NCBI GenBank assembly: GCA_050951325.1
Contig: JBMNIW010000001.1
Span: 224,001 to 288,000, forward strand
From: Clostridia bacterium
GTDB lineage: Bacteria; Bacillota; Clostridia; UBA1212; DUPL01
Direction: 5' to 3'
Length of the DNA: 64,000 nt
The position numbers and the translations under genes were made by a program. Below, in pieces: positions 6,734 through 39,230 of the stretch. Every line of letters starts with the position of its first letter. Position 1 is the first letter of the stretch. The notes under the pieces are model-generated. The model worked only from the letters and a program-made list of their open reading frames with translations. It was not told where the DNA came from and made no database searches.

Positions 6734-7070
6734 AAAAAAAGGGCAGCTCATCCCATGGGACGAGTTACCCTCGTGGTGCCACCCAATTTCAGCTGTCTGG
6801 CAAAGCTACTTTAAAAAAAGGCATTTCATCCTTTTAGGACGAAATGCCAATAATTTCGTTAGCCACCCAAACAGCCATCTCATTCCAGGTACGGAAAGTT
6901 TCACTTTCGATACCCTGTCCTTTTAACGGTGGACTTCCGGTTAATGCTACTTCAAGGTTCGCACAACTTCTCCCAGGCCCATTCAGCTGCACTTAAGGTA
7001 CCGCATTCCCACCACCAACGGCTCTCTGAAACCATCCATCCAGCCTACTCTTCCTGTTCATAGAATTTGG
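6734..7070 (-). promoter_or_regulatory. Trp T-box riboswitch leader
   Basis: Minus strand: AGTA/AGAGA/GGTG stem-I motifs, specifier GAA-TGG-GCC (TGG at 6979-6981), T-box AATTGGGTGGCACCACG (6772-6788), terminator hairpin plus T7 (6734-6770). Confidence 0.93.
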
Positions 7071-7088
7071 CTGTATTAAATTTCCGAT

Positions 7089-7117
7089 ATGGTACAACAT
7101 ATATCCTATAATGTCAA
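7089..7117 (-). promoter_or_regulatory. SigmaA-type promoter of trp leader
   Basis: TTGACA-N17-TACCAT on the minus strand just upstream of stem I. Confidence 0.65.
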
Positions 7118-7143
7118 GAGGTATTTAAAAACTTTTCTGTATA

Positions 7144-8214
7144 TTATATGCGAATCTTTTCGCCATTGTACACTTTAACAGTTTCAACAAAAGCAAGAAT
7201 ATTTTCAAAGGGAACCTCAGGTTCCAATACATGGGTAGGAGCAAGAACCAAACCGCCATTGTCTTCTCTTGCCTTGTCAATCATCTTCATGCAAAAATCT
7301 CTAACTTCTGAAGGAGTGCCAAAAGGCATCAGCGTCTGAGTCCCCAAAGTACCCCATAAAGTCAATTTGTCCTTGTATTCATCCTTAATCCTTAACGGAT
7401 CCATGCACTCTGGCTGTACAGGGTTGAGTATTTCAACGCCAATCTCTATCAAGTCAGGTATAATCTTCGTTAGATTTCCATCTCCATGGTAGAAAATAAA
7501 TATGTCAGGATTAATCTCTTTTGCGCAAGCTATAACTTTTTCCAACCTGCCCTTTAAATACTTTTTCCACATATCCGGGGACATCATCATATCCAGTTGT
7601 GTAGAAACATCATCACCAAGCCTTAATATGTCGCAGCCTGCTTTTGCGTACATTCTGGCAAACGTGCATTTTATCTCTGTAATTCTGTCCAAAAGACAAT
7701 TTGCCATATCCTCATTGAAGGTCATGTCTAAAAAGAGATTCTCCATACCTCTCAAATACCACGCAGTTTCAAAGATTGTGCATTCAAGACCTCCTGAAAC
7801 CACCGTATCTTTTTCTATCAGGGATTTTACATCCCTTTCAAGCTTCTCCCAGTTAAAATTAAGGTTCGCATCGGGAAAGGGGTACTCAAGAATCTCGTAA
7901 ACACACTCAAACTTTTCCATTGGATGCACCATTTTTGTAAAATGGGCCATGGACCCTTTAACATGGCCTACACCCCATTCCGGCTCGATGTATATATTGT
8001 CAGAATCATAGTATTTTTCGAATCTTTGAGAGCCAAGATTGATTAACTCAGGATATGTCCCCCTTAGTGGGAATTTGTAGTACTCGACATAATTCCTGCT
8101 GCCGGTTCTTTGCATGAATTCTTCATATTTCGACGGGCACAGACAGAATTCAAAAGGTATATACGAACCGTTCCTTCTTCTAATAGCGTCCAGAGTCTTC
8201 TTTCTTACAGACAT
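7144..8214 (-). CDS. Uroporphyrinogen decarboxylase/cobalamin-independent methyltransferase (URO-D) family protein
   Basis: IFETAWYLRGMENL, LGDD, YHGDG, LNPVQPECMD, GTPSEV, APTH..EPEVPFENI. Confidence 0.85.
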   Translation of the reverse strand: MSVRKKTLDAIRRRNGSYIPFEFCLCPSKYEEFMQRTGSRNYVEYYKFPLRGTYPELINLGSQRFEKYYDSDNIYIEPEWGVGHVKGSMAHFTKMVHPMEKFECVYEILEYPFPDANLNFNWEKLERDVKSLIEKDTVVSGGLECTIFETAWYLRGMENLFLDMTFNEDMANCLLDRITEIKCTFARMYAKAGCDILRLGDDVSTQLDMMMSPDMWKKYLKGRLEKVIACAKEINPDIFIFYHGDGNLTKIIPDLIEIGVEILNPVQPECMDPLRIKDEYKDKLTLWGTLGTQTLMPFGTPSEVRDFCMKMIDKAREDNGGLVLAPTHVLEPEVPFENILAFVETVKVYNGEKIRI

Positions 8215-8350
8215 ATTTCATACCTCTTTTTTATTGATTTTAGTTCATATTCCAAACAAAATCAATTGTTTTTGCTTACAGGTATAAACTATTTTCCTAT
8301 AATACCGATACGATATATAGTATTAATTTTTTACTGAAAGGAGCAGCCAA

Positions 8351-8752
8351 ATGGAAGTTAAATGGACAACCAATCTATCAGTTGGAGTAGAAAAGATTGA
8401 TGAGCAGCATAAAATATGGTTTGATAAAGCAAACAACCTATTTCAGGCTGGAAAGAACAGAAAATCAAGAGAAGTAATCGAGGAAATGCTTCAATTTCTT
8501 GATGAATATACAAAAGAACATTTCAGCGATGAAGAAGCATACATGGAACAGATAAAGTATCCTGGTCTGGAAGAGCAAAAGGCAGCTCATGCAAACTTTA
8601 TCAAGGAACTGGCAAAACTGAAACAGGACTATGAAGAGTCCGGCGGCAATGTCGCAGTTATAATCAACGCCAACGTGTTGATTATAAACTGGTTGACACA
8701 ACACATATCCAACATGGACAAGCAGATTGGCGTTTATGCCAAAGGCCTTTAA
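8351..8752 (+). CDS. Bacteriohemerythrin
   Basis: W...LSVG..IDEQH, EHFSDEE.YM..YP, H..F, WL..HI..MD. Confidence 0.92.
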   Translation: MEVKWTTNLSVGVEKIDEQHKIWFDKANNLFQAGKNRKSREVIEEMLQFLDEYTKEHFSDEEAYMEQIKYPGLEEQKAAHANFIKELAKLKQDYEESGGNVAVIINANVLIINWLTQHISNMDKQIGVYAKGL

Positions 8753-8772
8753 TCTGAAAGGAGCGTTCTGTC

Positions 8773-9180
8773 ATGGAAGCTATTAAATGGACAAATGATT
8801 TGTCAGTTGGTCTTGCCCACATTGACAACCAGCATAAAATATTTTTGGAAAAGGCGAACAATCTTTTTGAAGCAGGAAAGAATAGAAAATCAAAAGAAGT
8901 AATTGCTGAAATGCTTGATTTTCTTGAAGCTTATGCAAATGAACACTTCAGAGATGAAGAAGCGTACATGGCACAAATTAATTACCCTGGTCTTGAGCAG
9001 CAGAGAAGCGCCCATCAGGGTTTTGTAGAAGAGCTAAACAAATTAAAGGAAGAATATGAGCAATCAGGCGGCAATGTAGCCTTGATTATTGATTCTTATG
9101 TAATGATAATGAACTGGCTTACAAAACACATATCTAACATGGACAAAAAGATCGGAGATTTTGCGAAAAACAGGAAATAA
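8773..9180 (+). CDS. Bacteriohemerythrin (tandem paralogue)
   Basis: Same motifs: IDNQH, HFRDEE, YP...H, WLTKHISNMD. Confidence 0.92.
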   Translation: MEAIKWTNDLSVGLAHIDNQHKIFLEKANNLFEAGKNRKSKEVIAEMLDFLEAYANEHFRDEEAYMAQINYPGLEQQRSAHQGFVEELNKLKEEYEQSGGNVALIIDSYVMIMNWLTKHISNMDKKIGDFAKNRK

Positions 9181-9204
9181 GGCCGCACATTATGCGGCTT
9201 TTTT
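9179..9204 (+). terminator. Intrinsic terminator
   Basis: GGCCGCA-catta-TGCGGCT followed by a T-run. Confidence 0.75.
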
Positions 9205-9227
9205 GTTTTTTCAAGGGAGATGATTGA

Positions 9228-10136
9228 ATGTCAGAATACGTTCCAGGGTATAAAAATCTGTTGGATACTGGAGAACTTGAAATAAGAGTACGTATACTTA
9301 ATGAGAAGCTTAATAAATGCACCCTTTGTCCCCATCAGTGCAGAGCGTACAGAAATCAAGGCGAAAAAGGTATATGCAATGCAGGCAGCAGCACCGTTAT
9401 TAGTAGTTATGGTCCACATTACGGTGAGGAAGATGTTTTGGTTGGAAGATATGGTTCGGGAACCATATTCTTCAGCTGGTGCAACCTAAGATGTGTTTTT
9501 TGTCAAAACTTCCGCATAAGCCACTATGGAGAAGGTTATGAAACAAAAACCCAGGAGCTGGCGGAAATAATGCTCTCCCTTCAAAGAATGGGATGTCATA
9601 ACATAAACCTCGTATCCCCTACGATATATGTTCCACAGATAGTAGAAGCGGTGTTCATTGCTGCAAAAAGAGGTCTTGGAATTCCTCTTGTATACAATAC
9701 AGGAGGTTATGACAGTATGGAAACCCTGAAACTGCTTGACGGCATCATAGACATATACATGCCTGACCTGAAGTTCTTTGATAACGATGAAGCGTATAAG
9801 TACACAAAAGCCTCTGAATATCTCATTGTGGCAAGCAAGGCAGTGAAAGAGATGTTCAGACAGGTTGGCACCCTTAAAACTGATGAAAGAAATATTGCAT
9901 ACAAAGGCCTTATGATTAGACATCTTGTCATGCCTGACAATTTGGAAAACACGAAAAGAATCCTTTCTTTCATCGCAAATGAAATATCAAATGACACATA
10001 TGTAAATATCATGCCCCAGTACTATCCCGCACACATGGCTTTTAATTATACAGAATTATCCCAAAGGCTTTCCACAAGCGAATATACTGCCGCTATAAAC
10101 CATGCAAAGAAATTGGGTCTTAGTAACTTTCTATAA
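9228..10136 (+). CDS. Radical SAM protein (PflX-like)
   Basis: CTLCPHQC N-terminal motif, GSGTIFF..CNLRCVFCQN (CxxxCxxC), GCHNINLV, DIYMPDLK, IRHLVMP. Confidence 0.9.
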   Translation: MSEYVPGYKNLLDTGELEIRVRILNEKLNKCTLCPHQCRAYRNQGEKGICNAGSSTVISSYGPHYGEEDVLVGRYGSGTIFFSWCNLRCVFCQNFRISHYGEGYETKTQELAEIMLSLQRMGCHNINLVSPTIYVPQIVEAVFIAAKRGLGIPLVYNTGGYDSMETLKLLDGIIDIYMPDLKFFDNDEAYKYTKASEYLIVASKAVKEMFRQVGTLKTDERNIAYKGLMIRHLVMPDNLENTKRILSFIANEISNDTYVNIMPQYYPAHMAFNYTELSQRLSTSEYTAAINHAKKLGLSNFL

Positions 10137-16134: not shown

Positions 16135-16365
16135 CTACTTCCTTTCTTCAACCATATTAGGCACTAATTCCATGATATCTTTAAAATCAACACCAAGCGC
16201 CGTACAAACCTTTACAAGAACGTCCATACTGACATATTCATTTTTAGAAAGCTTTGAAATTGAAGATGGACTTATGCCCGCAGCAGCTTGTAAATCTTTC
16301 TTTTTCATATCGCGGTCTATCAACAATTTCCATAGCTTTTTATAACTAACGGTCATCTTGGTCAC
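16135..16365 (-). CDS. XRE-family HTH regulator
   Basis: VSYKKLWKLLIDRDMKKKDL...ISKL..NE.VS..VL.KVC..L....DI.E. Confidence 0.85.
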   Translation of the reverse strand: MTKMTVSYKKLWKLLIDRDMKKKDLQAAAGISPSSISKLSKNEYVSMDVLVKVCTALGVDFKDIMELVPNMVEERK

Positions 16366-26157: not shown

Positions 26158-26217
26158 ACTGGAAATCGTGTATACGTTTATAGCGTATCGAGGGTTCGAA
26201 TCCCTCTCTCTCCGCCA
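26158..26217 (+). tRNA. 3' fragment of tRNA-Ser(GGA) carried in the att site (not a complete tRNA)
   Basis: ACTGGAAATCGTG, long variable arm (ATACG..CGTAT), T-arm GAGGGTTCGAATCCCTC, TCTCTCCGCCA; the 5' anticodon-stem strand CACGA is at the other element end (37941-37945). Confidence 0.88.
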
Positions 26218-26221
26218 AATG

Positions 26222-26254
26222 ACAAGGGTTTGCAAGAATTTGCAAACCCTTTTT
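26222..26254 (+). terminator. Hairpin after the tRNA fragment
   Basis: AAGGGTTTGCAA-gaat-TTGCAAACCCTT followed by T's. Confidence 0.75.
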
Positions 26255-26284
26255 ACATGCTTATTTTTCTGCTAAAAAGTCTAT

Positions 26285-26311
26285 TTGCTAAAAATTTGCT
26301 AAAAAATGATT
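26285..26311. repeat. Putative integrase arm-type sites (left copy)
   Basis: TTGCTAAAAATTTGCTAAAAAATGATT, identical to 37797-37823; built of TGCTAAAAA units. Confidence 0.75.
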
Positions 26312-26385
26312 TAAGACAGAACAGAATAGAAAAGGATAAACTGAAAAGTTTTGTTGCCAATCTCAACCCAAAATTTCTTTATCAT

Positions 26386-27576
26386 TTATTCAAATAGGTT
26401 TGTCTGTACAGCATCAGAGGCCTGTTCCTTTCTTTCCAATGCATCTTGATATATGTCAGCGGTAATAGTTACAGAACTATGCCCTAGCATCGCAGAGGTC
26501 ACTTTTAAATCTACATTTGACTCTAGCATTAATGTGGCATAACTGTGGCGTAAATCATGAAACCTAATTATAGGAAAATTGTTTTTCTCCAATAATTTTC
26601 TGAACTTCTTGCTAAAATTCTTCGGGTTTAATGGGGTTCCATCATTATGGCAGCAGACAAGGTCATTATCGATATAGTCCGACCCTATCATTTTTTTAAT
26701 TTTCTCTTGTTTCTCTTTATGTTCAAGCAATAATTCCACTAAACCCTTGGGCATAGGGAGTGTCCTTATACTGTTTTCTGTTTTCAAGGTAGTTAACTCA
26801 ACAATCTTTTTCTGCTCGTTATAACTTGCCTGCTGTCTTATCTCTACTTTTCCAGTATTAAAATTAATATTCTTCCACTGAAGTCCCAAAACCTCGCCAC
26901 GCCTTAACCCTAAAGAAACCCCTAAAGTTACAGGTATATACAAATCTGTTCCATTTGCGGCTTCTAATAGTATTTTCAGCATATTAGCATCATAAATATT
27001 GTTTTGGTATTTCCTCACAGTAGGCCTTGATACGCCTTCTGCCGGATTTCTTATTAGAATACCATCTCTGACAGCATCTTTTAGCGCTTTATTCAATACT
27101 CGATGAATATATTGAATAGACCTTGCTGATAATTTTTTAGATTTATTTTCATCATTATTGCTGCCACCCCCATCATATAGGTCGAAGTAAAACTTTTGGA
27201 TTTGTCCTCTAGAAAGTTGTTGGATAGGTACGTGACCTATGTTAGGAATTATATGATTTTCAATATTGACCCTGTAACCCCTTAGTGTATTACTGCTTAG
27301 CCTTGGCCTGCAATGTGTGCCGTACCATTTAGTAAGGTATTCCGCCAAGGTCATCTTTGTCGGTTCTATATAGGTATTGGAGTTAATTTTAGCGTTTATT
27401 TCGTATAATGCTTCCTGGGCTTCTTTCTTGGTTTTGAAGCCCCCCTTCCATCGTTGCTTCTTTTTCCCCGTCTTTGGGTCTATTGGGTAATATAATATTG
27501 TCCATGTATTTCCACGCTTAAATGGATTCCCCCGTTTGCCATACCTTCGAGTTTTACCGTTAGTCTCATTTTTCAA
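26386..27576 (-). CDS. int: Tyrosine recombinase/integrase
   Basis: N-terminal arm-binding region (GGFKTKKEA), GLRRGE, KT, FHDLRHS, LGHS...T.DIY. Confidence 0.95.
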   Translation of the reverse strand: MKNETNGKTRRYGKRGNPFKRGNTWTILYYPIDPKTGKKKQRWKGGFKTKKEAQEALYEINAKINSNTYIEPTKMTLAEYLTKWYGTHCRPRLSSNTLRGYRVNIENHIIPNIGHVPIQQLSRGQIQKFYFDLYDGGGSNNDENKSKKLSARSIQYIHRVLNKALKDAVRDGILIRNPAEGVSRPTVRKYQNNIYDANMLKILLEAANGTDLYIPVTLGVSLGLRRGEVLGLQWKNINFNTGKVEIRQQASYNEQKKIVELTTLKTENSIRTLPMPKGLVELLLEHKEKQEKIKKMIGSDYIDNDLVCCHNDGTPLNPKNFSKKFRKLLEKNNFPIIRFHDLRHSYATLMLESNVDLKVTSAMLGHSSVTITADIYQDALERKEQASDAVQTNLFE

Positions 27577-27644
27577 TTTTAATTCCTCCTTTACAAGATG
27601 TTCTAAGACTGCGCCTCTGTTAAAGAAGCGCAGCCACTTGCTTT

Positions 27645-27851
27645 TTATGAGACTCTCTCCTCATGTGAGGAGTTAAGCCACTCAAAAAATGGTTGTGTCG
27701 GTATCCTAATAGCATTCTTTATTCTTATATGAGGGAATAGGTTCTGGTGTACAACCTCATAGGCCTTACTTCGACCAATCCTTAGAATCTCTGCCACCTC
27801 AGGAACAGTTAAAGTAGCCTGCTTTTTATAATCTTCAATGCTCCTAGTCAT
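27645..27851 (-). CDS. xis: Excisionase-like HTH protein
   Basis: LTVPEVAEILRIGRSKAYE...FPHIRI...IRIP...F.EWL; directly upstream of int. Confidence 0.85.
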   Translation of the reverse strand: MTRSIEDYKKQATLTVPEVAEILRIGRSKAYEVVHQNLFPHIRIKNAIRIPTQPFFEWLNSSHEERVS

Positions 27852-28078
27852 TTCGATTCCTCCTTTGTGTTTTAATGATATTAATGCCTGTTTCTATATG
27901 ACTCTTTATATAAAAAGTTCTGATTGGGATTCAACTTTTTATGGTAAGTTTTGTCCCTACATTTGTAGCATAACACAAAAAAATTGTACGGTTTTTATCC
28001 CCCTATTCTTCTGAATCTCTTCTGGTACAATATGGGGAAGACATGAAATGTTTACATAATCCAATATTGCTAGTAATA

Positions 28079-28120
28079 AAAAAAGGCTTTAGTAGATTCA
28101 TAGTCTACTAAAACCTTTTT
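28079..28120. terminator. Bidirectional terminator after the three-gene operon
   Basis: AAAAAAGG(C)TTTAGTAGA..TCTACTAAA(A)CCTTTTT. Confidence 0.7.
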
Positions 28121-28149
28121 GATGGCGCTATAGAGTTTACCCTAATCTG

Positions 28150-29019
28150 TCAGAAAATTAAATGTAACGTGTCATCCTCTAACATATCCAAAAATGCTAT
28201 ATTATCTATCACTCTTTCTTGCTCTTCAATTGAATTATCCTGTTTCTTCCTAGTGAATTTAATCCTTCTCGCCTGCCTATAACTATTTACAAATGAATCA
28301 ATATTATCACGCTTTATATATCCAAGCCTTGTCCATTCATAAATTAAAAAGTCGTTTGACTTAAAAGTTATGGACGTATATCTTTTATCTCTAAAATAAT
28401 CTTCTTTATAAATCTTTTCCTTTGCTTTAGAGATAAAGTCATAAGCATCTCTATCACTGCTGAAGATAGTAATAGTATCAATCTTTTCACTGTAAAAATA
28501 GGAAAATATATAACTTAGAACACAAATTGAAATCTCGCCTGCATTTTTTCTCTGAATTCTACCGTTTGCAAGTTCCCTTTTATCCAGTCCCTCATTATAA
28601 ATTATATCTAACCATTCCTCATAAGGAGCCAAATCTTCTACTGGTCTCCCTTGCAGAATGTTTCTCTTTATAAATCCAACAAGCCTACTCACATTGTTGC
28701 AACTATACAGAAATATATAATACAATGCTGCTTCTTTATAATCCACTAATGCTGCGTAATCAACCTCATCTATAATTTGGACCTTTGAAAAATGCTTTAA
28801 ATTATAGATATAATTTTTCCTCTTTTCACTATCACAAACCTCTACCCACACCCATTTAGGTATAAAAATTATATCATACTGACAAAATATCTTTTCAGGG
28901 CCAATCCTATCATACATCCGGGTTAAAAACTCAATTGAATTATTATCTAAAATACAAACTTTGAGGGACTTGCCCTTAGAAAGATATTCTTTTAAGCAGT
29001 CAATATCTTTCCCTTTCAT
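28150..29019 (-). CDS. Hypothetical protein with PIN-like acidic motifs
   Basis: VCILDNNS, IPKWVWVEV, NAGEISI, FSSDRD follow the D/E/E/D order of PIN nucleases; ATGA overlap with the upstream gene. Confidence 0.55.
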   Translation of the reverse strand: MKGKDIDCLKEYLSKGKSLKVCILDNNSIEFLTRMYDRIGPEKIFCQYDIIFIPKWVWVEVCDSEKRKNYIYNLKHFSKVQIIDEVDYAALVDYKEAALYYIFLYSCNNVSRLVGFIKRNILQGRPVEDLAPYEEWLDIIYNEGLDKRELANGRIQRKNAGEISICVLSYIFSYFYSEKIDTITIFSSDRDAYDFISKAKEKIYKEDYFRDKRYTSITFKSNDFLIYEWTRLGYIKRDNIDSFVNSYRQARRIKFTRKKQDNSIEEQERVIDNIAFLDMLEDDTLHLIF

Positions 29020-29810
29020 TTAGAGAGTCCCTCCAGCCCTTCTTGAATTTTACTCTTTATTTCTAACAAATAACTATAATTATCTTTATGATATGAGACA
29101 TCTGGATTCTCTTCCATAACCTTTTTCATTTTTTTCTCCAAGCCACCTAAATTTACTACATATGAGGGTTTTACTAACTCGGAATCTAGCCCTAAATCTA
29201 TAAATTTCTGCACTAAATTTATAGATTTGTTATCAAAATGCTCCACAATCTCTTTCTTTAATTCTAAATCATTATATTTAGTAGTGGCTTCTTCAAATAG
29301 TTCTATCAGCACCGCCTTATATGGTGCCTTATATGCGTCCATACATTTTATAACCCTATCAATGAAATCTTCATCATCTAACGAGTAGTAATATTCATAT
29401 ACATTGCCAAAAATCATTTTTGCAGCAAAATAATCTGCCTTTCTTTCATTCAAATCCATATCAACTGCAATATTGTGTGTTTCTTCGCTCAAATTAAGGT
29501 CATAAAACAGGTGATAAATTTCATGCCATGCTACAAAATACTGATATACACGGGGCTGGGCTGTGTTTATCACTGGTATTTTGATGTTTTCCTTTGTAAT
29601 TATAGCCCCACCCCAATATTTATCATCAATAGGAATTTGAATTAAATGATGCTCTTTTAACACGGAAAAAGACAGTTTGTCTTGCCCTGCCATCCCCACC
29701 CTATTAAATCTAACTGTAAAATCATTTGTTAATCTTAATATATCATCTTTAATCAATTTATTTTTTTCAATAACCTGCTCCAGGTTCTTGCTAGTTATTA
29801 GTTCTGACAT
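29016..29810 (-). CDS. ImmA/IrrE-family Zn metallopeptidase
   Basis: IN..QP..YQYFVAWHEIYH (HExxH) ... ERKADYFAA. Confidence 0.85.
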   Translation of the reverse strand: MSELITSKNLEQVIEKNKLIKDDILRLTNDFTVRFNRVGMAGQDKLSFSVLKEHHLIQIPIDDKYWGGAIITKENIKIPVINTAQPRVYQYFVAWHEIYHLFYDLNLSEETHNIAVDMDLNERKADYFAAKMIFGNVYEYYYSLDDEDFIDRVIKCMDAYKAPYKAVLIELFEEATTKYNDLELKKEIVEHFDNKSINLVQKFIDLGLDSELVKPSYVVNLGGLEKKMKKVMEENPDVSYHKDNYSYLLEIKSKIQEGLEGLSK

Positions 29811-29822
29811 AATTTCACCTTC

Positions 29823-30197
29823 TTAACCATAGTATAGTTCATACATGTGAACTATATCTTCTAAAATACCGAACATCTCCTGAGCATTAGAGGTTAAGGT
29901 ATGGTCATCTGGAGCATTATCAGATAGGGCAAAAACAAAATCCCTTTTTTCCTTGTGTCTTGGAGTATAATGCAAAAGTTGTTCAGCATCCATATCCTGG
30001 CTTTTTAGTATTTTACTAATATGGGTTCTAAATGTTGAGAGATTGTCAACTTCTCCCTTAATTAGTTTATCTAAAGTAGGCCTTGAAATAGTTGTGAGCC
30101 TTGAGAAGGATGACTTGGTATATCCGTTATCCTTTATGATGTTTAATATATTTTCACCAATTAATTTTCTGTTTTCAAACAATAATTCTATAATCAT
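29823..30197 (-). CDS. XRE-like HTH protein
   Basis: IGENI..IIK..GYTKSSFSRLTTISRPTLDKLIKGE; GGGAGG RBS. Confidence 0.75.
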   Translation of the reverse strand: MIIELLFENRKLIGENILNIIKDNGYTKSSFSRLTTISRPTLDKLIKGEVDNLSTFRTHISKILKSQDMDAEQLLHYTPRHKEKRDFVFALSDNAPDDHTLTSNAQEMFGILEDIVHMYELYYG

Positions 30198-30722
30198 TTT
30201 TTACACCTCCCACCTTATTATATCCTAAATGTCAATAAAAAGATACCGTTTGTAAAGTATTTTTTTACATTCTTTCGTTTTTATCCTTTCCGCTGTAAAA
30301 CTCTTAATCTAAGGTGGCATAGTTAAATCTATTTTCTGCTGCTGTTTAGCATTTTATTAATGAAGAGTGTTATCTTTCGTATTATAATTTCTTATATAAT
30401 CCCAATATGCCTTTACTTCAGCCTGTTCTAACATATTAAAGATGCTTTCAATATCATCGTAAAATTTTTTATATGTCTTCAAAATATGGGGAGCCATTTT
30501 AACTTTTAAGTGTGGAAGGGAGTAATTGCAATATACCAAATCTCTCAAAACCAGAAATTAGGTGCGAACTAATAGAAATAAATTTGATTTTATTAGTATA
30601 TAAAAAGAATTTATATTCTCTTAACTCAACCATTAATCAACCTAAAATACTGTGTATCTTTACTAAATACTTTATCAGTATTAAAAACATATAATTAACT
30701 GTAAAATCCTTCCCCAAAATAA

Positions 30723-31512
30723 CTAAAACTTATCAATATCTTCTACTCTATAATATTTCTTTGTAGTTTCTCTAATATTATTCTTAGCCATTTCTTTTGT
30801 TTGTTCTAACTCTTCAGTAGACAATTGCCCTTTTGACATTAGTAATTTAAACAATTCTTCATTTAAATTATAAACATATGCCAAAATATTCATGATGTTG
30901 CTAAATTCAGGCTCAAAAAACTTCGATATAGATGACTCTTTATTGTCATAAACATCCTCAACTAGTACAATGTCTTTTTTAATATATCCATCATTTTCAG
31001 ACCAAATGACTTTCCCAAATCTCATTTTTTTAACTTCATCACTGATACCTTTTCTTATTACATCAAGGTAGATGTTCTCCTTCGTGGCCATATCAAGTTT
31101 TTCAGCATCTTCTTTTGACAATTTTATCTTTGAATTTATTATAATAGCATCATCATAACTTTCATTAAATTCGTAAGGTACTACTTCAAATCCTGCAATA
31201 ACTAAACTATCTATTGCTAATTCCTCAACTTCTTCTAAGCGCAAAGTATAAGTATAAACTGTATCTTCATCAGTATTATTCCCTGTATAACTAAAGAAAT
31301 GATTCACCAATCTATACTCTCTAATAGTTATACCATTGTTATCAATATTAAAAATTCCCCCGTTTTTAGCCTTGCTCAATGCGTTTTCAAGAGTATTCTT
31401 TTGGGTTTCACCTATAACTTGTAATCTAAAGGATAATATCTCAAGTTGTTTTCCTGTATGTGGTGATACTTTTGGCTCACCATAATCCACATTTGATACA
31501 TTAATTATATGG
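30723..31512 (-). pseudogene. Hypothetical protein with 5' end truncated by IS21
   Basis: Long open frame whose annotated N-terminus reads out of the IS21 left end; native start not visible. Confidence 0.6.
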
Positions 31513-31664
31513 TGTTTATTGCATAATATAATTCCCCGAAATTGCAAAGCAAAATTCCCCACTTTTGCAACGCAAAACTCCCCATAATTGCAAAAGGCCA
31601 TTGCAGGCACCACACCAATAAATTATCCTTGTGTTTGTGGATAAATACAAGGAGGTAATGGAGG

Positions 31665-33173
31665 ATGCTAACAATGACCCAAGTAAAGAATATCAGAAAA
31701 ATGTATTTTGAGGAAGGGAAAAATATTAGTCAAATTTCCAGTGAAACAGGACATTGCCGGAAAACTGTAAGAGGATATCTAAGCAAAGAGGATTGGAATG
31801 AGGAAATACCAAAAGTAAAAAAGAAAAATAACTTTCCAAAACTTGAGCAATTCAAACCATTAATCGATACATGGCTTTATGAAGATAAGAAAGCCAAACG
31901 AAAACAAAGGCATACTGCCACACACATATATAAACGTTTACAAGAAGAATGTAATGGTTTCAACTGCTCCTATAGAACTGTTGCAAGTTATGTTTCTCAA
32001 AAGAAAAAGGAGATTTTTAGTACAAAGAACGCATATCTACCTTTGGAGCATATTCCAGGAGAAGCACAAGTAGACTTTGGAAGTGCTGACTTTTATGAAA
32101 ATGGGAAGCTATATAGCGGCAAGTACCTGAATCTGTCATTCCCGTATAGCAATAAAGGATATCTCCAGTTATTCAAGGGAGAAAACCAGGAATGCCTGTT
32201 TGAGGGTTTGAAAACAATATTTGAGCATATAGGAGGTGTACCAACCAGGATATGGTTTGATAATACAAGCACTATTGTTACCAAGGTGATTAAGGGAGGA
32301 GCTCGGAATCTGACAGATGACTTTTTGCGTTTTAAAGAACATTACCGTTTTGAGGCAGCCTTTTGCAATGTTGAGGCTGGTCATGAAAAAGGGAATGTTG
32401 AAAACAAAGTAGGCTATCATAGACGCAACCTTCTTGTCCCTGTGCCGAAATTCCAGAGTCTGATAGACTTCAATAAAGAACTTCTGCAGAAGTGCGAGAG
32501 TGATGCCAAAAGAGAACATTACCGAAAGGAAGGGACTATTGAAGATCTGTATAGAGCTGATTCTGAATCTCTTTTAGAGCTGCCGGCGACATCTTTTGAT
32601 GCAAGCAAATACATAACGGTGAAAACCAACGGATATGCCAAGTTTGTGCTTAACAATGGCATGCATGAATATTCTGTAGCACCCAAATATGCAAATGAGC
32701 ATGTATTGGTAAGGTTGACAGCCTTTAATGTAATAGTTCTTGACGAATGCTATCGTGAAATAGTGCGTCATGACAGACTTTATGGCGATAGCAAACAGCA
32801 AAGTATGCAGTGGGTGCCATATCTTGAACAGTTGGCAAGGCGACCAGGTGCATTGAAGTATACAGGAGTATACCAAATGCTACCACAACCATTAAGTGAA
32901 TATATGGAATGCTTAAACAAGAGGGATAGAGGGAATGTGCTAATGGTTATAGCAAGGCTGACACAAAAAGGTAGTTTTGAACAAGCTGTTGGTACTGTAT
33001 GTGCAGCATTGCAGCATGGTGTTACTGATGTAGACAGCCTTTTAAGTTTGCACCGACGACTTTATGAGAATATACCTCAGATTGAGCCTGTGCGACTTCC
33101 AGAGCATATTCCACAATTGATAAGATATGAACCTGATCTTACTGCTTATGATAAAAACTTAGGAGGGAGGTGA
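31665..33173 (+). CDS. istA: IS21 transposase
   Basis: N-terminal HTH, PGEAQVDFG, GGVP.RIWFDN, EKG.VE. Confidence 0.95.
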   Translation: MLTMTQVKNIRKMYFEEGKNISQISSETGHCRKTVRGYLSKEDWNEEIPKVKKKNNFPKLEQFKPLIDTWLYEDKKAKRKQRHTATHIYKRLQEECNGFNCSYRTVASYVSQKKKEIFSTKNAYLPLEHIPGEAQVDFGSADFYENGKLYSGKYLNLSFPYSNKGYLQLFKGENQECLFEGLKTIFEHIGGVPTRIWFDNTSTIVTKVIKGGARNLTDDFLRFKEHYRFEAAFCNVEAGHEKGNVENKVGYHRRNLLVPVPKFQSLIDFNKELLQKCESDAKREHYRKEGTIEDLYRADSESLLELPATSFDASKYITVKTNGYAKFVLNNGMHEYSVAPKYANEHVLVRLTAFNVIVLDECYREIVRHDRLYGDSKQQSMQWVPYLEQLARRPGALKYTGVYQMLPQPLSEYMECLNKRDRGNVLMVIARLTQKGSFEQAVGTVCAALQHGVTDVDSLLSLHRRLYENIPQIEPVRLPEHIPQLIRYEPDLTAYDKNLGGR

Positions 33174-33904
33174 TAAATATGCTAACAGCTGATATTGCAG
33201 CATGTTGTAAGACTCTTCGTTTAAGTCGCAATATCGTGGATATGTCGGATAAGATTCAGGCGGACAGTCATCAGGAATATCTGCTTAAATTGCTTCAATC
33301 AGAAATCTCACATCGTGATATAGTGAGAAAGAATAAACGATTAAACAAAGCTGGGTTTTATACTATTAAGACATTTGAAAGCTTTAGGTTTGACGAAGTG
33401 ACACTTCCTAGTGGAATAACTCCTGAGTACCTGAGAGAGTGTGAGTTTATCAAAAACAAAACCAATATCGTCATGTATGGCAATGTTGGCACAGGCAAGA
33501 CACATCTTTCAATAGCATTGGGTGTTGAGGCCTGTAAAAGAGGGTTTGAGGTAGCTTTTTACAGGACAACTGCGCTTGTTAACAAGCTTGCAGAGCACAA
33601 GAAAGCTGGAACCTTATCCACTTTCCTTAAGAAACTAAGCAAAGCAGACCTACTGATCTGTGATGAGTGGGGATACGTCCCACTCGACCGGATTGGTGCG
33701 CAACTTCTCTTTGAGGTAATATCAGAGCGATACGAAAACAAGTCTGTAATTATTAATACCAACATTGAGTTTTCAAGGTGGGTAAACATACTTTACGACG
33801 AGCAAATGACAGGTGCAATAATAGATCGAATTCTACATCATTGTCACTTGCTTTTATTCTCTGGTCAAAGCCACAGGATGCGTGAAGCAAGACTTGGCCA
33901 TTGA
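33170..33904 (+). CDS. istB: IS21 helper ATPase
   Basis: GNVGTGKTHL, LLICDEWGY, ISERYE, AIIDRILHH. Confidence 0.95.
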   Translation: MINMLTADIAACCKTLRLSRNIVDMSDKIQADSHQEYLLKLLQSEISHRDIVRKNKRLNKAGFYTIKTFESFRFDEVTLPSGITPEYLRECEFIKNKTNIVMYGNVGTGKTHLSIALGVEACKRGFEVAFYRTTALVNKLAEHKKAGTLSTFLKKLSKADLLICDEWGYVPLDRIGAQLLFEVISERYENKSVIINTNIEFSRWVNILYDEQMTGAIIDRILHHCHLLLFSGQSHRMREARLGH

Positions 33905-34087
33905 AAACTTAGTAAAAAGGTTGCGGGGAAACCATAAAAATTCCCCACCCGGTGCCTGGGGAAAAATTTTTGCAAAACTGGGGAATTTACTATTGCAAAA
34001 AACACCTTGTTGAGCATATTGTCTTTGGTGCATTCCTTCATCTTCTTTTTGCTTTGTTTGCATGGAAAATAACTATGCCCTAAGGGA

Positions 34088-34118
34088 AAGAGCCCGGTAA
34101 TATTGCCGGGCTCTTGTT
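34088..34118. terminator. Hairpin downstream of the GNAT gene
   Basis: AAGAGCCCGGTAA-ta-TTGCCGGGCTCTT. Confidence 0.65.
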
Positions 34119-34148
34119 CATTTATTGTTAATTTTTATTATTATAAAG

Positions 34149-34790
34149 TCAAAATTCATTTACCTTTGATGCTTTTACTGCTCCTAAAAACTCCCTAGGT
34201 ACTTGTGCAAACTGTAACTTTTGAAAGTCCTCCTTAAACATAAAGGACTTTAAAATGGGTAAGGATTCTTCCAAATCATTTTGTCTATATCCAATTGCTG
34301 GGTCTGTCAGTAAAGCAAATCCAAAATCTGAATACAATTTTATTGCTCGGAAACTAGATGGGTGTGTATGAAGAAAAACAGGATATTCATTCTCTGGAAT
34401 GCTTTTCATAACAATAGAAAGCAGTGCCCTTCCAATGCCCAATCCTTCGTATTCTTTCATAACTTTAAACCAATGTATCGTAGTGATTTTATCGTAGGCC
34501 TTCCATGCAAAACAGGTTCCGATAGGAGCATTGTTTTCATCACAAACAAATAAACACTTTTTAAAAAATAAATCTTCTTTGCTAGCATAGACATCATTGA
34601 AATACTTTGTCATAAAATCACTATATTGCTCAGCAGTCTTTTCATCATCAAAGGGCATCTTTTTCCATATATCTAATTCATCCCTTCTACAGGTTCTTAC
34701 ATAATATCCATCTGGCAACTCAGCAAGGGCACTTGTATTCAATTTTTTACACATCATAAATAGATTCTTATCGGGAATTTCTTTTTCCAT
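34149..34790 (-). CDS. GNAT-family acetyltransferase
   Basis: IHWFKV..EYEGLGIGRALL, AIKLY..FGF; ATG at 34790 after AAAGGAG. Confidence 0.85.
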   Translation of the reverse strand: MEKEIPDKNLFMMCKKLNTSALAELPDGYYVRTCRRDELDIWKKMPFDDEKTAEQYSDFMTKYFNDVYASKEDLFFKKCLFVCDENNAPIGTCFAWKAYDKITTIHWFKVMKEYEGLGIGRALLSIVMKSIPENEYPVFLHTHPSSFRAIKLYSDFGFALLTDPAIGYRQNDLEESLPILKSFMFKEDFQKLQFAQVPREFLGAVKASKVNEF

Positions 34791-34857
34791 AACACAAACT
34801 CCTTTATAATGAGAACTAGTTTTAATAAACTGAACTTCAGCCACTATTTAAAATTTG

Positions 34858-35150
34858 ATGTTTCTTCCGCTACAATGTCCCGAGTAACGCCAAATTTGTC
34901 ATAAATGGCTGCATGAAATGTGCTTTAATATGTTTTAGTGGGTGGAAGCGAAATCTCAGCATTTTCATTCACCCATCAAATATTTTCTATGCTTCTGTAA
35001 AAATAGGTACTGCTGCAGTTAGCCTAACTATATTCCCCTTTTCTAAAATGTCAATTTCATCAGCAAACCAAAAAGTTATTCCGCAGATTTGCATTTCAGC
35101 ATATAAAATCCAGGTGCTTATATCAGATGGCGGAATCTTAATACCAGGAT
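34858..35150 (-). pseudogene. VOC/PhnB-like remnant
   Basis: Manual translation with stops/shifts: ILYAEMQICGITFWFADE...SLPPTKTY*STFHAAIYDKFGV. Confidence 0.55.
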
Positions 35151-35427
35151 AAATTTAAAAATAAAACCGTTATTCTTTGATTATAATAATATATCTTTTT
35201 TATTTAAATGGACTTTACCATTATAGATTATATCTTGATAGATGTATTCATAGGAATATAATCCTCGAAATAATTAAGTATATCCTTCAACTTATAATTA
35301 GGTCTGGCAGATGCTATGTAAAAATAACCATTATTTTCATTTTCGATTACCATAACATTTTCAAAATTTTTATTGAAAAATATATTCCCCCAAGTATAAC
35401 GATTTTTAGTCGCACTATATCGTATCA

Positions 35428-35709
35428 TTATTTATTTTTTAGTTCTAAAAGTATAGGTGTTATATTTAGTACAATAGATATAATCGTCAAAATCCATAAC
35501 CACATTTCCATAGTAGGTACAACATCTAATAAAGCCGACCAATCTTTCACTTTTACCCACTTAGATACAAGGCTGTATTCTGAACAAAGTGTTAATGCTG
35601 TAAACGATAATCCTATTGCCATAGTAAGTTTATAATCTTTCCCTGTTTTATACATAAAAAGATTTATAAAAGTTGCTACTATAGCAATAACTCCTAATAT
35701 TAACCACAT
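35428..35709 (-). CDS. Small membrane protein (about 3 TM)
   Basis: MWLILGVIAIVATFINL...SFTALTLC...EDWSAL-like KDWSALLDVVPT. Confidence 0.7.
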   Translation of the reverse strand: MWLILGVIAIVATFINLFMYKTGKDYKLTMAIGLSFTALTLCSEYSLVSKWVKVKDWSALLDVVPTMEMWLWILTIISIVLNITPILLELKNK

Positions 35710-35834
35710 AGTTATACCCCCATTATATTTTCCTTTAGTGTACATAATCCTACTTAAACGTCATGAATTTTCAATCTCAGCCTAATTTTCATATTATTAT
35801 ATCATTTCTTATCCTTAATAGAAGATGAAACTTC

Positions 35835-36300
35835 CTAAAAGGAGTGATTCAATAATACGCATACATAAGAAATAAGTTTTTTAAGCATATTTTCTTCAGG
35901 TTCAGGCTCAACAATCCCTGTTATTTCAAATCCTATTTTTATGAGACTATTTAAGTATATAGTAAGTGCTCTGTGATATTTAATAACTTCCTCTCCTAAA
36001 AATTTAGCATTACGAATACCTTCCGTAAAATAATGGTCAACTGGCCAATGCAGAATATTACCCTTATCATCATAATACCAATCTTGAGGGTCTTGTGCTG
36101 TAAAAATGGGATGCTCTACAGAAAATACAAAATCTCCACCTCTTGAAAGGCATTTATATACTTTATCTAAAACATCCCCAAAGGATTTAATATAATGAAG
36201 CACCAGGGAACTGATAACAACCTCAAAGGATTCCTCAGGAAAATCTATATCTTCGATTGGCATACAGATATACTCGATATTCTCGTATTTTGTTTTGTTT
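35835..36300 (-). pseudogene. Class I SAM-dependent methyltransferase fragment
   Basis: FPEESFEVVISSLVLHY, GGDFVFSVEHP, KYHR; lacks the N-terminal SAM-binding GxG motif and the C-terminus. Confidence 0.75.
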
Positions 36301-36362
36301 CATTGTAATCATCCCTTGCATATTTTCCCAATTTTCTTGCAATTAAGTTTCTTGTTTTAAAC

Positions 36363-37416
36363 TCAAGACTTGTATAATCCATTTAATAGTTTTAAGAATT
36401 CCGGGTTATCTCTTAAAAATGCTAATTCTTCATCCTCTTTCACTTCTTTAATCAAAGCAGACAAGAATAATCCTTCCAAGGACGAATCATCCTCTTTTGT
36501 TTTGATGTGCCTATATAATGGTGAACTATTGATATCCCACTTATTGGACATTGCTGTAAGCATAGATTTTAATAATTGAACACATTGAGTTGCATCTTGC
36601 TTAAATACAGCCAGTTCGAAATAAGCCACATAGGAGTCATAATCCCATAAATCATATAACTTGGCTGTTTTATGAGAAATATCTGCAATATATTCTGCTT
36701 CCTCTATTTTATTTTCCTTAAGATGAATTTCCATTAGTTTTAATAGAATTGTTTGGATTTCTTTAACTTCCTCAATTAGTTTCTTTTCTAAAATCTCTAA
36801 TGCTTGGTAATATTTCTTTTGTCTTATATAAAGATTTACTTGTAACTGTCTTTTGTCAAGTGAATGTTCAGGCAGAACATCTATTAGTTCTTGTACTTTA
36901 TCATATTCCTGTCGTTCTATTCGTTTTGAAATCAACTTTGATAATACATGGTTACGAATATCTGTATCTTTGCTATTGGCAATGCGTTCATACATCCTTT
37001 CTATCTGTTCATAATATTTTGCGTTTTCTCCATCATCAAACATAGACAATGAGCCTTCCAATAACATTGCAACCGTATAAATTAATTTATCACAACATGG
37101 ATATTCTTGTATTTTTTTCATTGCCATTTTATAACCGAACTCAAACCCTTTTTTTCTGTATTGCAGTAGCCAAATCATTAGCAAAATTACCTATTTCATT
37201 ATCTGTTAAATCTTCTTTAAATGATAGTAATGTATTTAAATCTGTCTTAAGTAATCTAGCCAAAGCAGGTAGTAATGTAATATCTGGGTAAGACACTCCT
37301 TTTTCCCACTTGTTTACTGCTGGAGTAGAAACCCCTAAATACTTTGCAACATTCTCTTGAGTTAAGTTTTGTTCTTGGCGTTTTTTCTTTATTATCTCAT
37401 TTATCTTCATAGCCAA
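36363..37416 (-). pseudogene. XRE-HTH regulator with helical C-terminal domain, frameshifted at an A7 run (~37150)
   Basis: LTQENVA.YLGVS.PAVNKWEKG.SYPDITLLP in 37141-37416; removing one A joins it in frame (IQKKGFEFG) to 36363-37184. Confidence 0.8.
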
Positions 37417-37796
37417 TCACCTCATACTTCTTTAATAGTCTTTTGATATTTTAATTATATTGGAACCAGACACCCTAGGCAATTGACCGTTTGTTAATCT
37501 TTGTTCAAAAAAGTTTATCTGTAGTTAATTATCTTGTATAACTTATAATATCTTAGACAAATTTGAATTTGTCTGCGACTAAATTTCGGGTAGGTTACAC
37601 TAAAATGGTAGGTTGCCTCTGGCTTTGTAAAGGGTGAGTGCAACGAGTTCATCTCACTTAGATAAGCAAATAAAACAGTCACCAATTTGAACATCACGGA
37701 TACAGTTTTTTAGTATAGTTGACCATGTTATCCTTATGGATAAGTCCAATTGTCTTTACATTTTCCCCTATTAGACCTTTGTAAAGTGCTAAAATC

Positions 37797-37823
37797 TTGC
37801 TAAAAATTTGCTAAAAAATGATT
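37797..37823. repeat. Putative integrase arm-type sites (right copy)
   Basis: Identical 27-bp direct repeat of 26285-26311. Confidence 0.75.
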
Positions 37824-37925
37824 CTGGACAGACTAAAATTGAAAGGAATTAGATGAGATACTAATGTAGCACAAACCCTGATATATCAAGGTTTTTAGGG
37901 AATATCCACAATAAAATGATATGGC

Positions 37926-39230
37926 CTAAAATGCCTCTGGCACGACTGAAAACATAGAGTAGAGTTCCTTCTTGTCAAACTCTCCAATAGGTATCCCATT
38001 TATTAAAATCTCACCTTCTGTAACGTCAAAAAGACCAGTTATCAGTTTTACCAAGGTACTCTTGCCCGCTCCATTTATACCAACAACCGCCAGTTTTTCA
38101 CCTTTTCGAATCTTTAGATTGAGATTCTTGAATATGTAATTGTCGGTATTGGGATATTTAAAGCTTACATTTCTAAGCTCTATTTCAAGAGTGTTTTCGA
38201 CAACAGCCTTCCTTTCTCCACCTTTAACTCCCAGATCCTTGTCCATAAACTCATAAAAATCATGAACATACTGTCCCTCGTTTATAATAAAGGAGGTGTT
38301 GTCAATGAGGGTTTTCAGCATCATTGACAGGCTGACTATTGCGGACAAATACATCAAAAAGTCCGCTATGGGCATGCCATTCAAAGCCTTTACAACCAGT
38401 ATTCCATAAGTAGCCGCATCACTTATCAAAAGAGCTGCCAGACCTGCAAATCCAATCAGGAACTCCTTGTTCCTAATAATTCTGTGAATACCTATGTACG
38501 CCTTTATTTCATCATCATAGTTTCTCAGTATTCTATCCTTTAGATTATGTATCCTTATGTCTTTACCAAAACCAAAGTCATGGGTTGTGTTGTAATAGTA
38601 GCGGTTTCTTCTTTCCGCATGAGAAAGCTCTTTCCTCTTCTCATAATGGTAGTTGTGTACTTTTCTGTTTATCCACATTACACAAAATACATTCAGGATG
38701 TGGGCAAGAAGCACAAATATGTTCAGCCCCCCAATAAACACAACAAGAACAATGGAAGTCAATAGCACTGCAAAGCTTTCAAACAGTTTGTGGTATACAC
38801 CTTCTATACCGTTGTTGTTCGAACTTACAGCTTCAAAGGCCTTGTTGTTAACTTCGAAGAAGGACGCATCCTCCATGTATTTGTAATCCACACTAAGAAG
38901 CTTGTCATACATGTCCCGGATATAGTCGATACGGAGTCTTGTAATACGTGGATATGCATAGTCATGAGAATAGGCTTTTACAAATCCAAATATGGCAGTC
39001 AGGACAAAGTACATTGAAACAATCAAAATAATATTCCGTACCTTTGCACTTCCGCCCATGGAAAGCTCTTCAATCAGGAACTTCGGAAGCATGATTGCAA
39101 ACAATGGATAAACAGCGGCAGTTATTGTGTAAATGGTAAAGTACACAAATATTGTTCTGTTTTGTGCGTGCATGTTCTTTATTAGTCCTTTTATCACCTT
39201 ATGTATTGGATACGCTACAAATTTCTTCAC
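37926..39230 (-). pseudogene. ABC transporter, 5' fragment (interrupted by integrative element)
   Basis: TMD plus Walker A GINGAGKS; ends LYSMFSV, then reads VPEAF* from element sequence. Confidence 0.92.

Follow-up and report, generated by a model that had tools for sequence, protein, structure and literature searches.

The studied window is a stretch of 64 kb from contig JBMNIW010000001.1 of a Clostridia bacterium, whose open reading frames (ORFs) and their translations were listed by a program. The subject of this work is a group of three genes on that strand, hereafter called the trio. The genes encode a helix-turn-helix (HTH) protein, a zinc metallopeptidase and a third protein for which a PIN-like fold is predicted. 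In the window the excisionase and integrase genes (xis and int) of a mobile element follow directly downstream of the trio on the same strand, and no second copy of it occurs in the genome. The positions of the genes and of their control signals are given in Table 1.

Organization of the operon

The earlier note on this DNA, which was made from the sequence alone, described a tight operon of three ORFs, and this description is borne out in every detail: the gene sizes, the spacing, the terminator and the inverted repeat TGTAAA-N7-TTTACA are all seen. The stop codon of the HTH gene is separated from the start of the peptidase gene by a 12-nt gap, and the peptidase stop codon overlaps the start codon of the third gene in the sequence ATGA. 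No good -35 box was found in the window at the standard spacing to the TATAAT box.

Parts of the region are contained in 14 metatranscriptome runs, and we examined contigs from four of these runs, which belong to four studies. The contigs span all three genes, and single contigs bridge both the junction of the HTH and peptidase genes and that of the peptidase and third genes. They lend weak support to transcription of the trio and prove neither the transcription itself nor a single transcript. RNA-library contigs from two studies stop a few bases short of the expected start site (positions 30195 and 30200), which is a weak hint of a transcript start nearby. Some parts of the region have no contig over them.

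Table 1. Features of the trio, predicted parts of its third protein, and surroundings of related trio loci (L numbers)
Feature	Position	Strand	Remarks
XRE/Cro-C1-type HTH gene	29823-30197	minus	124 aa; GGAGG ribosome site in front
M78 (ImmA/IrrE/CapP-type) zinc metallopeptidase gene	29016-29810	minus	264 aa
PIN-like third gene	28150-29019	minus	289 aa
Predicted operator, inverted repeat TGTAAA-AAAATAC-TTTACA (N7)	30251-30269	minus	upstream of promoter; read from the sequence
Possible third half-site TTTACA	30294-30299	minus	~25 nt upstream of operator; inferred
-10-like box TATAAT	30217-30222	minus	read from the sequence; not listed by the consensus scan
Intrinsic-terminator-like hairpin	28120-28080	minus	17 pairs, then T-rich tail; directly after third gene
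Predicted PIN-like core with helical insertions	residues ~14-232 of third protein		from the structural model
Predicted C-terminal extension, small helix-hairpin-helix-strand domain	residues ~233-289 of third protein (roughly 55)		conserved; fold hardly covered by structural search
L004, L007			trio beside Tn7-like tnsA/B/C
L018, L023, L043			trio between or beside tyrosine integrases
L023			trio directly after an OLD-type ATPase and UvrD helicase pair, read as Gabija-like
L019, L021			trio next to type I restriction fragments, WYL regulator, RelB/YoeB and PLD-helicase
L024			trio next to large serine recombinase
L051, L052			relaxase/MobC/TTRAP/serine-recombinase elements (conjugative or mobilizable)
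L054	3094-9232		whole trio between phage large terminase (terL) and portal genes; typical "moron" place
L037			trio between glycosyltransferase and epimerase genes (sugar metabolism); no recombinase within 4.5 kb

Conservation of the trio

We scanned the genomes of 185,579 species, one genome per species, and found 44 loci with the third gene. In 38 of these loci the HTH, peptidase and third genes follow each other in one order and on one strand. In five of the six other loci the contig breaks off shortly before the third gene, and the last one (L044) is a fragment of 50 residues. The full trio is also present in four of five loci from IMG/VR. The earlier note had proposed to look for recurrence of the trio in a neighbourhood analysis, and these counts confirm it. 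A tblastn search against phage and plasmid collections gave no match.

The arrangement of the genes is stable, while identity of the third protein falls to ~30% across the loci. The HTH protein and the peptidase are encoded by separate genes in all 38 trio loci. In 35 of the 38, the ORFs of the peptidase and the third protein either overlap or are at most 5 nt apart, and in 19 of the loci the overlap is exactly 4 nt (counted by hand). The locus records carry the labels Clostridia (many genera), Lachnospiraceae, Oscillospiraceae, Erysipelotrichaceae, Treponema/Spirochaetaceae and Eggerthellaceae.

The HTH protein and its operator

The HTH protein matches the Pfam model HTH_26 (E 2.3e-9) and the PADLOC model PDC-M69A (E 1.3e-6, 26.9 bits). 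In the alignment of 25 orthologues the core of the HTH, ISRPTL, is invariant. The linker S92-x-N94-x-P96 is invariant too and is followed by a conserved amphipathic C-terminal helix that ends in YY.

The inverted repeat noticed upstream of the operon turned out to be a conserved putative operator. For 31 of the 38 trio loci a script searched the 160 nt in front of the HTH gene, and it found the pattern TGTAAA-N(6-8)-TTTACA in 29 of them (L015 and L016 do not have it). In the related loci it stands ~70-90 nt before the HTH start codon, just upstream of a promoter that contains TATAAT. Loci whose HTH protein shares only 35-40% identity with that of the window retain it as well. TATAAT occurs at the matching position in most related upstream regions, and in the Lachnospiraceae group the repeat is followed by a good TTGAT -35 box with a spacer of 17 nt to TATAAT. 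The close relatives L001, L003, L004, L006, L007 and L014 have TTTTACA at the place that matches the possible third half-site. Within the 64 kb of the window the exact operator pattern occurs once; with one mismatch allowed, there is one further match, at position 16289, where 0.56 matches are expected by chance. The joint conservation of the operator and the HTH gene is our best evidence that the HTH protein autoregulates its operon through this predicted operator.

The peptidase

The earlier note had recognized a HExxH peptidase of the ImmA/IrrE type, and both the sequence and the structural model agree with this. The best sequence match is to the PADLOC model PDC-M69B (E 1.4e-15, 55.8 bits), followed by the PADLOC model capP (E 3.2e-6); these are the only PADLOC families listed for the protein. 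The match to Pfam Peptidase_M78 has an E-value of 0.001 and lies below the Pfam cut-off. The zinc site consists of the motif H96-E97-x-x-H100 and of E122. Among 25 orthologues, H96 is retained in 24, and E97, H100 and E122 are retained in all.

The structural model of the peptidase has a mean predicted local distance difference test score (pLDDT) of 88 and, according to DSSP, contains only helices after residue 82. Its best match is CapP (7t5t; Z 12.7, root-mean-square deviation (rmsd) 3.4, 166 residues aligned), and the second-best is PprI (IrrE) bound to single-stranded DNA (ssDNA) (8sln; Z 10.3). Two HTH-DUF955 regulators of M. tuberculosis are matched with Z 9.1 and 8.5, and the first unrelated protein appears at Z 5.5. 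Foldseek gives CapP with probability 1.00 and E 2.9e-3. Thus the protein has an M78 fold of the CapP/IrrE/ImmA type with intact zinc ligands.

The loop of residues 101-121, which links the HExxH helix to the last zinc ligand, is modelled with lower confidence and contains a nearly invariant histidine, H112. CapP has its cysteine-switch loop at this place. Autoinhibition based on the histidine is conceivable.

The PIN-like protein

The third protein is almost invisible to sequence models. It has no match at E <= 0.001 in Pfam, NCBIfam, PADLOC or PHROGs; in Pfam and PADLOC there is nothing even at E <= 0.1, and the single weak match to a PHROG has E 0.018. A comparison with the sequences of PDB gave no meaningful match. 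The family is small: we found 86 clusters, all of them unnamed or "hypothetical", and a set of 1.84 billion proteins yielded 145 representatives at 50% identity. The nearest atlas clusters carry the automatic name DUF4935 and have no Pfam family in common. The family is not seen by the models of Pfam and PADLOC; therefore, it is overlooked by the tools that annotate defense and toxin-antitoxin (TA) systems.

Structural comparison points to PIN nucleases, in line with the earlier note, which had described PIN-like acidic motifs and a C-terminal extension. The model, built on an alignment of 29 family members, is confident (pLDDT 93.8; predicted TM-score 0.91). In VIA-align the top row is the PIN domain of Rrp44 (6d6r_K; Z 8.2, rmsd 3.5, 155 residues aligned). 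It is followed by the PIN domain of T. brucei RRP44 (Z 7.9), Utp24 (7.9), Nmd4 (7.8) and Nob1 (7.5). Many VapC toxins are matched with Z from 7.3 to 5.5, VapC15 with 7.3, and HARP, a NYN domain and SMG5/EST1A are matched as well. Among the first 39 rows nearly all belong to the PIN type, and at least 22 carry such a name (PIN, VapC, Nob1, Utp, Nmd4, NYN, HARP). The PIN matches cover residues 14-248 of the model. Foldseek finds Rrp44 and Nmd4 with probabilities of 0.93-1.00 and E-values of only ~4e-3; a Foldseek search against viral models gave nothing at E <= 0.001. The structural evidence for a PIN-like fold is consistent but modest.

The acidic motifs proved to be real conserved columns. Among the 29 family members D25, E60, E85, E162 and D189 never vary, and at least 90% keep D63, D191 and D223; the acidic residues are also retained in distant copies. 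The strands of the model that precede acidic residues are 19-24, 50-54, 79-83, 180-186 and 217-220. Each of the five invariant residues stands just after a strand or at the start of a helix, which resembles the arrangement of PIN active sites; D25, E60 (or E85), E162 and D189 are candidate residues of a metal site.

Decay of the third gene

The third gene is repeatedly broken while its neighbours are intact. Independent nonsense codons interrupt it in L002 (TGA at a Cys codon), L005 (TAA at Lys), L012 (TAA at Lys) and L022 (TAG at Trp). Frameshifts disrupt it in L014, L017, L040 and L041, L043 has a truncated copy, and the copy of L027 is without its last ~35 residues. The HTH and peptidase genes are broken in L040 alone, where all three genes are broken. 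If this locus is set aside, the 38 trio loci show five hits on the 870 nt of the third gene (L012, L014, L017, L022 and L043), and the HTH and peptidase genes, 1,170 nt together, have no hit. By our own arithmetic, such a split has a chance of roughly 1 in 70 if hits are distributed evenly by length. The lone decay of the third gene fits what would be expected for a costly or toxic part, and these natural knock-outs point to the putative nuclease as the costly component of the trio.

A different kind of interruption is found in one lineage of the family (P0101, P0108, P0110, P0111 and P0146). The third gene is interrupted there at varied points, for instance right after the motif TQDTD, and runs into unrelated sequence that includes pieces of large serine recombinases. 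We considered whether the odd C-termini of these family members were domain fusions and rejected this, since they are interrupted copies of one lineage. The gene may be a target site for such elements, or the interruptions may be deletions or assembly chimeras.

Genomic contexts

To describe the surroundings of the trio, Pfam models were applied to 122 neighbouring ORFs of 13 loci and to 30 ORFs of four loci from the viral collection. The contexts are varied (Table 1, lower part). Upstream of the trio, 26 loci have a neighbour on the same strand, 10 have a divergent one and 6 have none. No conserved fourth gene was found across the trio loci. In particular, a conserved divergent gene at the operator was considered and rejected: the two small divergent ORFs that were compared are unrelated to each other. 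The variety of contexts and the lack of a conserved fourth gene indicate that the trio is a self-contained cargo module and not a regulatory switch of one kind of element. We regard it as strongly supported that the trio is a self-contained, horizontally mobile module of three genes, found on mobile elements of anaerobic bacteria.

In two Clostridium genomes there are extra fragments of the peptidase gene 1-3 kb downstream of an intact trio (L019:7823-8251 and L021:8794-9042). They may be remnants of a second copy.

The host element in the window

The element that carries the trio in the window is an insert of ~11.8 kb (26160-37940) in an ABC-transporter gene. The gene is split inside its ATPase domain, between ...YSMFSVV (near 37940) and VVFQDINV... 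(near 26160). Exact direct repeats of 27 nt, at 26285-26311 and 37797-37823, stand just inside the ends of the element and consist of tandem TTGCTAAAAA units. The integrase of the element carries an Arm-DNA-bind_4 domain; therefore, the repeats may be arm-type binding sites of the integrase.

Next to the integrase gene there is the 3' half of a tRNA-Ser gene (Rfam match at 26162-26214, E 7.8e-9). A whole tRNA gene at the element end is ruled out: ARAGORN finds none in the window, and only the 3' half is present. In the sister elements L001 and L008, whose third proteins are 100% and 98% identical to that of the window, the integrase gene is adjacent to a complete tRNA-Ser(GGA); the window sequence departs from both elements at the tRNA anticodon loop. 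Because the sister elements sit at tRNA-Ser(GGA) and the window retains its 3' half, the insertion into the ABC-transporter gene looks like a secondary-site integration at a sequence resembling the anticodon loop.

The earlier note had suggested that the trio couples stress to the expression of xis and int and thereby to repair of the ABC-transporter gene. This suggestion is not upheld. A terminator separates the trio from xis, no operator pattern was found before xis or int in the window, and xis or int genes like those of the window are missing from most related loci. Together with the secondary-site character of the insertion, the terminator and the missing operator leave the idea that the trio governs excision or repair of the ABC gene without support.

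The same note had called the trio the only intact multi-gene cargo of the element apart from IS21. The trio and IS21 are indeed there, and a further pair of genes at the far end of the element qualifies the word "only". An HTH_3 ORF (37141-37416) overlaps an ORF of 273 aa (36363-37184). On the minus strand of this region (36363-37416) the HTH_3 ORF, 91 aa long, is in a different frame from the 273-aa ORF, which has a faint TPR-like match, and the pair may be a frameshifted HTH-TPR regulator.

Several other details of the element were noted. A 63-aa ORF upstream of the trio (in the region 30357-31613, minus strand) is a shortened form of an ORF of 153-168 aa that occupies this place in L001 and L007. 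It is followed by an ORF of 296 aa and then by IS21 (istA/istB; 31665-33904, plus strand), which is inserted inside the element. In L001 an extra ~2.9 kb of DNA (6870-9733) stands between the third gene and xis; it is not present in the window.

Proposed mechanism and alternatives

We propose that the trio is an autoregulated module in which the peptidase gates a PIN-like nuclease and which serves defense or addiction on mobile elements. We give this reading a probability of about 0.5. A dimer of the HTH protein would bind the TGTAAA-N7-TTTACA operator and hold the operon at a low basal level. A signal of stress or of an invader (the earlier note named DNA damage or phage) would switch on the peptidase. 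The HTH protein would then be cut by it at a point between the DNA-binding domain and the C-terminal helix, with the invariant S-x-N-x-P linker as the candidate site. Repression would be lost, and the PIN-like nuclease, being translationally coupled to the peptidase, would accumulate. It would cleave RNA (DNA is less likely) and halt cell growth. For the carrier elements this would amount to an abortive-infection type of defense or to an addiction function.

A number of observations weigh against this proposal. The PIN-like nature of the third protein has consistent but modest structural support, with a best Z of 8.2 that belongs to the middling range of the tool; there are no Foldseek matches to this protein at E <= 0.001, and none of the Pfam models of the PIN clan matches any of the 29 family members at E <= 1. 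In the peptidase model no strands of the GAF type were found (there are none after residue 82), and the alignment shows no cysteine in residues 101-121, the site of the cysteine-switch loop of CapP; therefore, the ssDNA mechanism of CapP and IrrE is not simply transferable to the trio. The regulators share the operon with the effector, unlike CapH/CapP, so basal expression would also yield some nuclease, and some restraint at the protein level may exist besides transcription. L051 has an intact third gene with a peptidase remnant of 59 residues and no HTH gene. Some of the broken third genes are from metagenome bins and may reflect consensus errors, and the RNA-library contigs may derive from contaminating DNA. 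The toxicity and nuclease activity of the third protein, the binding to the operator and the cleavage step are predictions.

The question of basal nuclease leads to an alternative that we consider unlikely, though less so than the others: control of a toxin at the protein level, as in RosmerTA or classical three-component TA systems. The toxin would be held by the C-terminal helix of the HTH protein or by the peptidase, the peptidase would destroy or release this restraint, and autoregulation would be secondary. Such a scheme was proposed for Xre proteins, COG2856 peptidases and PIN or RelE toxins by Makarova 2009 (PMC2701414), and Ernits 2023 reported confirmed antitoxins with an ImmA domain (RmrA) and an association with PIN-like domains (here and below, the statements refer to the covered sections of the cited publications). 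The translational coupling of the peptidase and third genes in most loci, in the usual layout of antitoxin followed by toxin, agrees with this scheme, as do the common operon, which entails some nuclease at the basal level, and the conserved amphipathic helix of the HTH protein. The locus L051 speaks against this scheme too: its third gene is intact, although the HTH gene is missing and the peptidase gene is reduced to a remnant. Additionally, the strongly conserved operator shows that transcriptional control matters. The peptidase could also act on the PIN-like protein itself as on a zymogen, for example by cutting off the ~55-residue C-terminal extension, with or without cleavage of the HTH protein. 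Site-specific cleavage that unleashes latent effectors has been described for other types of protease and effector (PMC12642450; discussion of Calloji 2026), and the third protein of the trio has a conserved extension beyond its PIN core and a gene tightly coupled to that of the peptidase. However, the terms M78, ImmA, metallopeptidase and HTH do not occur in the main text of PMC12642450, the characterized relatives of the peptidase in the literature on CapP, IrrE and ImmA cleave HTH repressors, and the HTH partner and the operator are strictly co-conserved with it. We hold activation of this kind to be improbable. A combination of both cleavages has an equally small chance in our judgement: with such a double key, the peptidase would cut the HTH repressor and also trim the C-terminal extension of the third protein, thus activating a latent nuclease. 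The signal would be something other than ssDNA, because the GAF half of the ssDNA groove is missing. If true, the double key would join the repressor-cleavage logic of CapP and ImmA with zymogen activation, which has so far been described for other protease classes.

The two remaining alternatives deny the third protein the role of an effector. The HTH protein and the peptidase could be a life-cycle switch of the ImmR/ImmA type that controls excision or transfer of the element, through xis and int in the window, with the third gene as a passenger. The place of the trio just before xis and int, which share its strand, the integrases or recombinases near it in several loci, and the control of prophage and ICE mobilization by ImmA/ImmR (Calloji 2026; Ernits 2023) make this worth considering. 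Yet in the window a terminator stands between the trio and xis, and the single operator is not before xis or int. Furthermore, the machinery around the trio is unrelated from locus to locus (tyrosine integrase, serine recombinases, Tn7 tnsABC, a phage structural region, sugar-metabolism genes), the third gene is always co-inherited, and there is no conserved divergent gene. We therefore find such a switch very improbable. Finally, the third protein could be no toxin at all but a PIN-like factor that is inactive or catalytically specialized and serves the mobile element, for example in RNA processing or as a DNA-binding accessory. No sequence model of a toxin family matches it, and several of its top structural matches (Nmd4, Utp23 and SMG5) are PIN proteins that we take to be non-catalytic. 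This is the least probable of the alternatives: six acidic positions are invariant or nearly so across a wide divergence, the third gene alone is repeatedly inactivated, and the contexts of the trio are rich in defense and TA genes.

Comparison with known systems

The closest studied relative of the regulator pair is CapH/CapP, which regulates CBASS and other immune operons. CapP cleaves the repressor CapH in its C-terminal dimerization domain, and the CapH site lies just upstream of a -35 box (Lau et al. 2022 preprint); IrrE/DdrO and ImmA/ImmR are parallel repressor-cleaving pairs (Calloji et al. 2026 preprint). The trio resembles CapH/CapP in combining an HTH repressor with an M78 peptidase, in the zinc site (H96, E97, H100 and E129 in CapP; H96, E97, H100 and E122 in the trio) and in the position of the operator just upstream of the promoter, as for the CapH site. 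The layout is different. CapH/CapP stand upstream of, and opposite to, the operon under their control (Lau et al. 2022 preprint), whereas the regulators and the putative effector of the trio form one operon on one strand in the window and in all 38 loci. The peptidases differ as well. In CapP a central HTH and a C-terminal GAF domain form a groove for ssDNA, the GAF domain being half of this groove in CapP and in IrrE (Lau et al. 2022; Calloji et al. 2026 preprints), and a third of CapP proteins have the cysteine-switch loop; the peptidase model of the trio has neither GAF strands nor the loop cysteine. With ImmR/ImmA of ICEBs1 (an integrative and conjugative element, ICE) and with IrrE/DdrO of Deinococcus, the trio shares the logic of a repressor and a site-specific peptidase. 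Those pairs control excision or DNA-repair regulons and have no dedicated nuclease in the same operon. IrrE has a GAF domain, in contrast to the peptidase of the trio, and the trio, unlike ImmR/ImmA, is not bound to one kind of element.

RosmerTA is similar in that it is a mobile anti-phage TA module whose toxin has an ImmA-type peptidase as its partner. However, its antitoxin RmrA is a single protein with a small N-terminal HTH, whereas the HTH protein and the peptidase of the trio are split, and the characterized RmrT toxins act on membranes and are not PIN-like.

A check against PADLOC, proposed in the earlier note, led to a candidate system, PDC-M69, and to a mixed result. Systems of the PDC-x series are called unpublished in PMC11811056, and the name PDC-M69 was not found in the literature searched. 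The gene order is the same and the sizes are similar: genuine PDC-M69 loci have an HTH protein of 113 aa, a HExxH peptidase of ~290 aa and a third protein. The HTH protein of the trio matches model A and its peptidase matches model B, both distantly. The third protein falls outside the family of PDC-M69C. It is ~95 residues longer, has no PADLOC match to PDC-M69C at E <= 0.1, and gave nothing in BLASTP against a genuine member; the PDC-M69C model finds nothing in the genome. In hhalign the two families are related with a probability of 21% (E 0.001, 32 columns), and they share a local motif, KNxGE...ITI..SD. Membership of the third protein in PDC-M69C is thus rejected at the sequence level.

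The nearest likeness of the whole trio is with predicted three-component TA systems. Makarova 2009 (PMC2701414) linked COG2856 Zn-peptidases with Xre HTH proteins and with PIN and RelE toxins and proposed a three-component TA organization. In Matelska 2017 (PMC5499597) the PIN-like groups COG2405, DUF4411, PIN_14, PIN_20 and PIN_26 are co-transcribed with HTH and DUF955 proteins, and in Ernits 2023 the ImmA node, which includes the ImmA-domain antitoxins (RmrA), is associated with PIN-like domains. According to these publications the architecture of the trio is not new, having been predicted in 2009 and 2017 and noted again in 2023. The trio shows the whole layout: a co-transcribed Xre-type HTH protein, a HExxH peptidase of the ImmA/IrrE family (COG2856/DUF955) and a PIN-like putative toxin, with a mobile and patchy distribution. 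It differs from the published cases in two respects. Many of them fuse the HTH and the peptidase, which are separate genes in the trio, and the third protein of the trio fits no Pfam PIN model, so that it was placed in none of the groups listed in the main texts. The literature search found no account of this particular PIN-like family. Predictions of operons with an HTH gene, an ImmA/IrrE-type peptidase gene and a PIN-like gene go back to 2009, and no experimentally worked-out case was found in the literature covered.

The trio is therefore a module of a kind predicted in 2009 and 2017, and what it adds to the earlier predictions is a PIN-like family that the current models of Pfam and PADLOC do not recognize. 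It is a clean and compact example of such modules, with three separate genes, a sharply conserved operator and a confident model for each enzyme. These properties, and the natural knock-outs of the third gene, would make the family convenient for studying the restraint of such modules and the trigger of a CapP-like peptidase without the ssDNA-sensing GAF domain.

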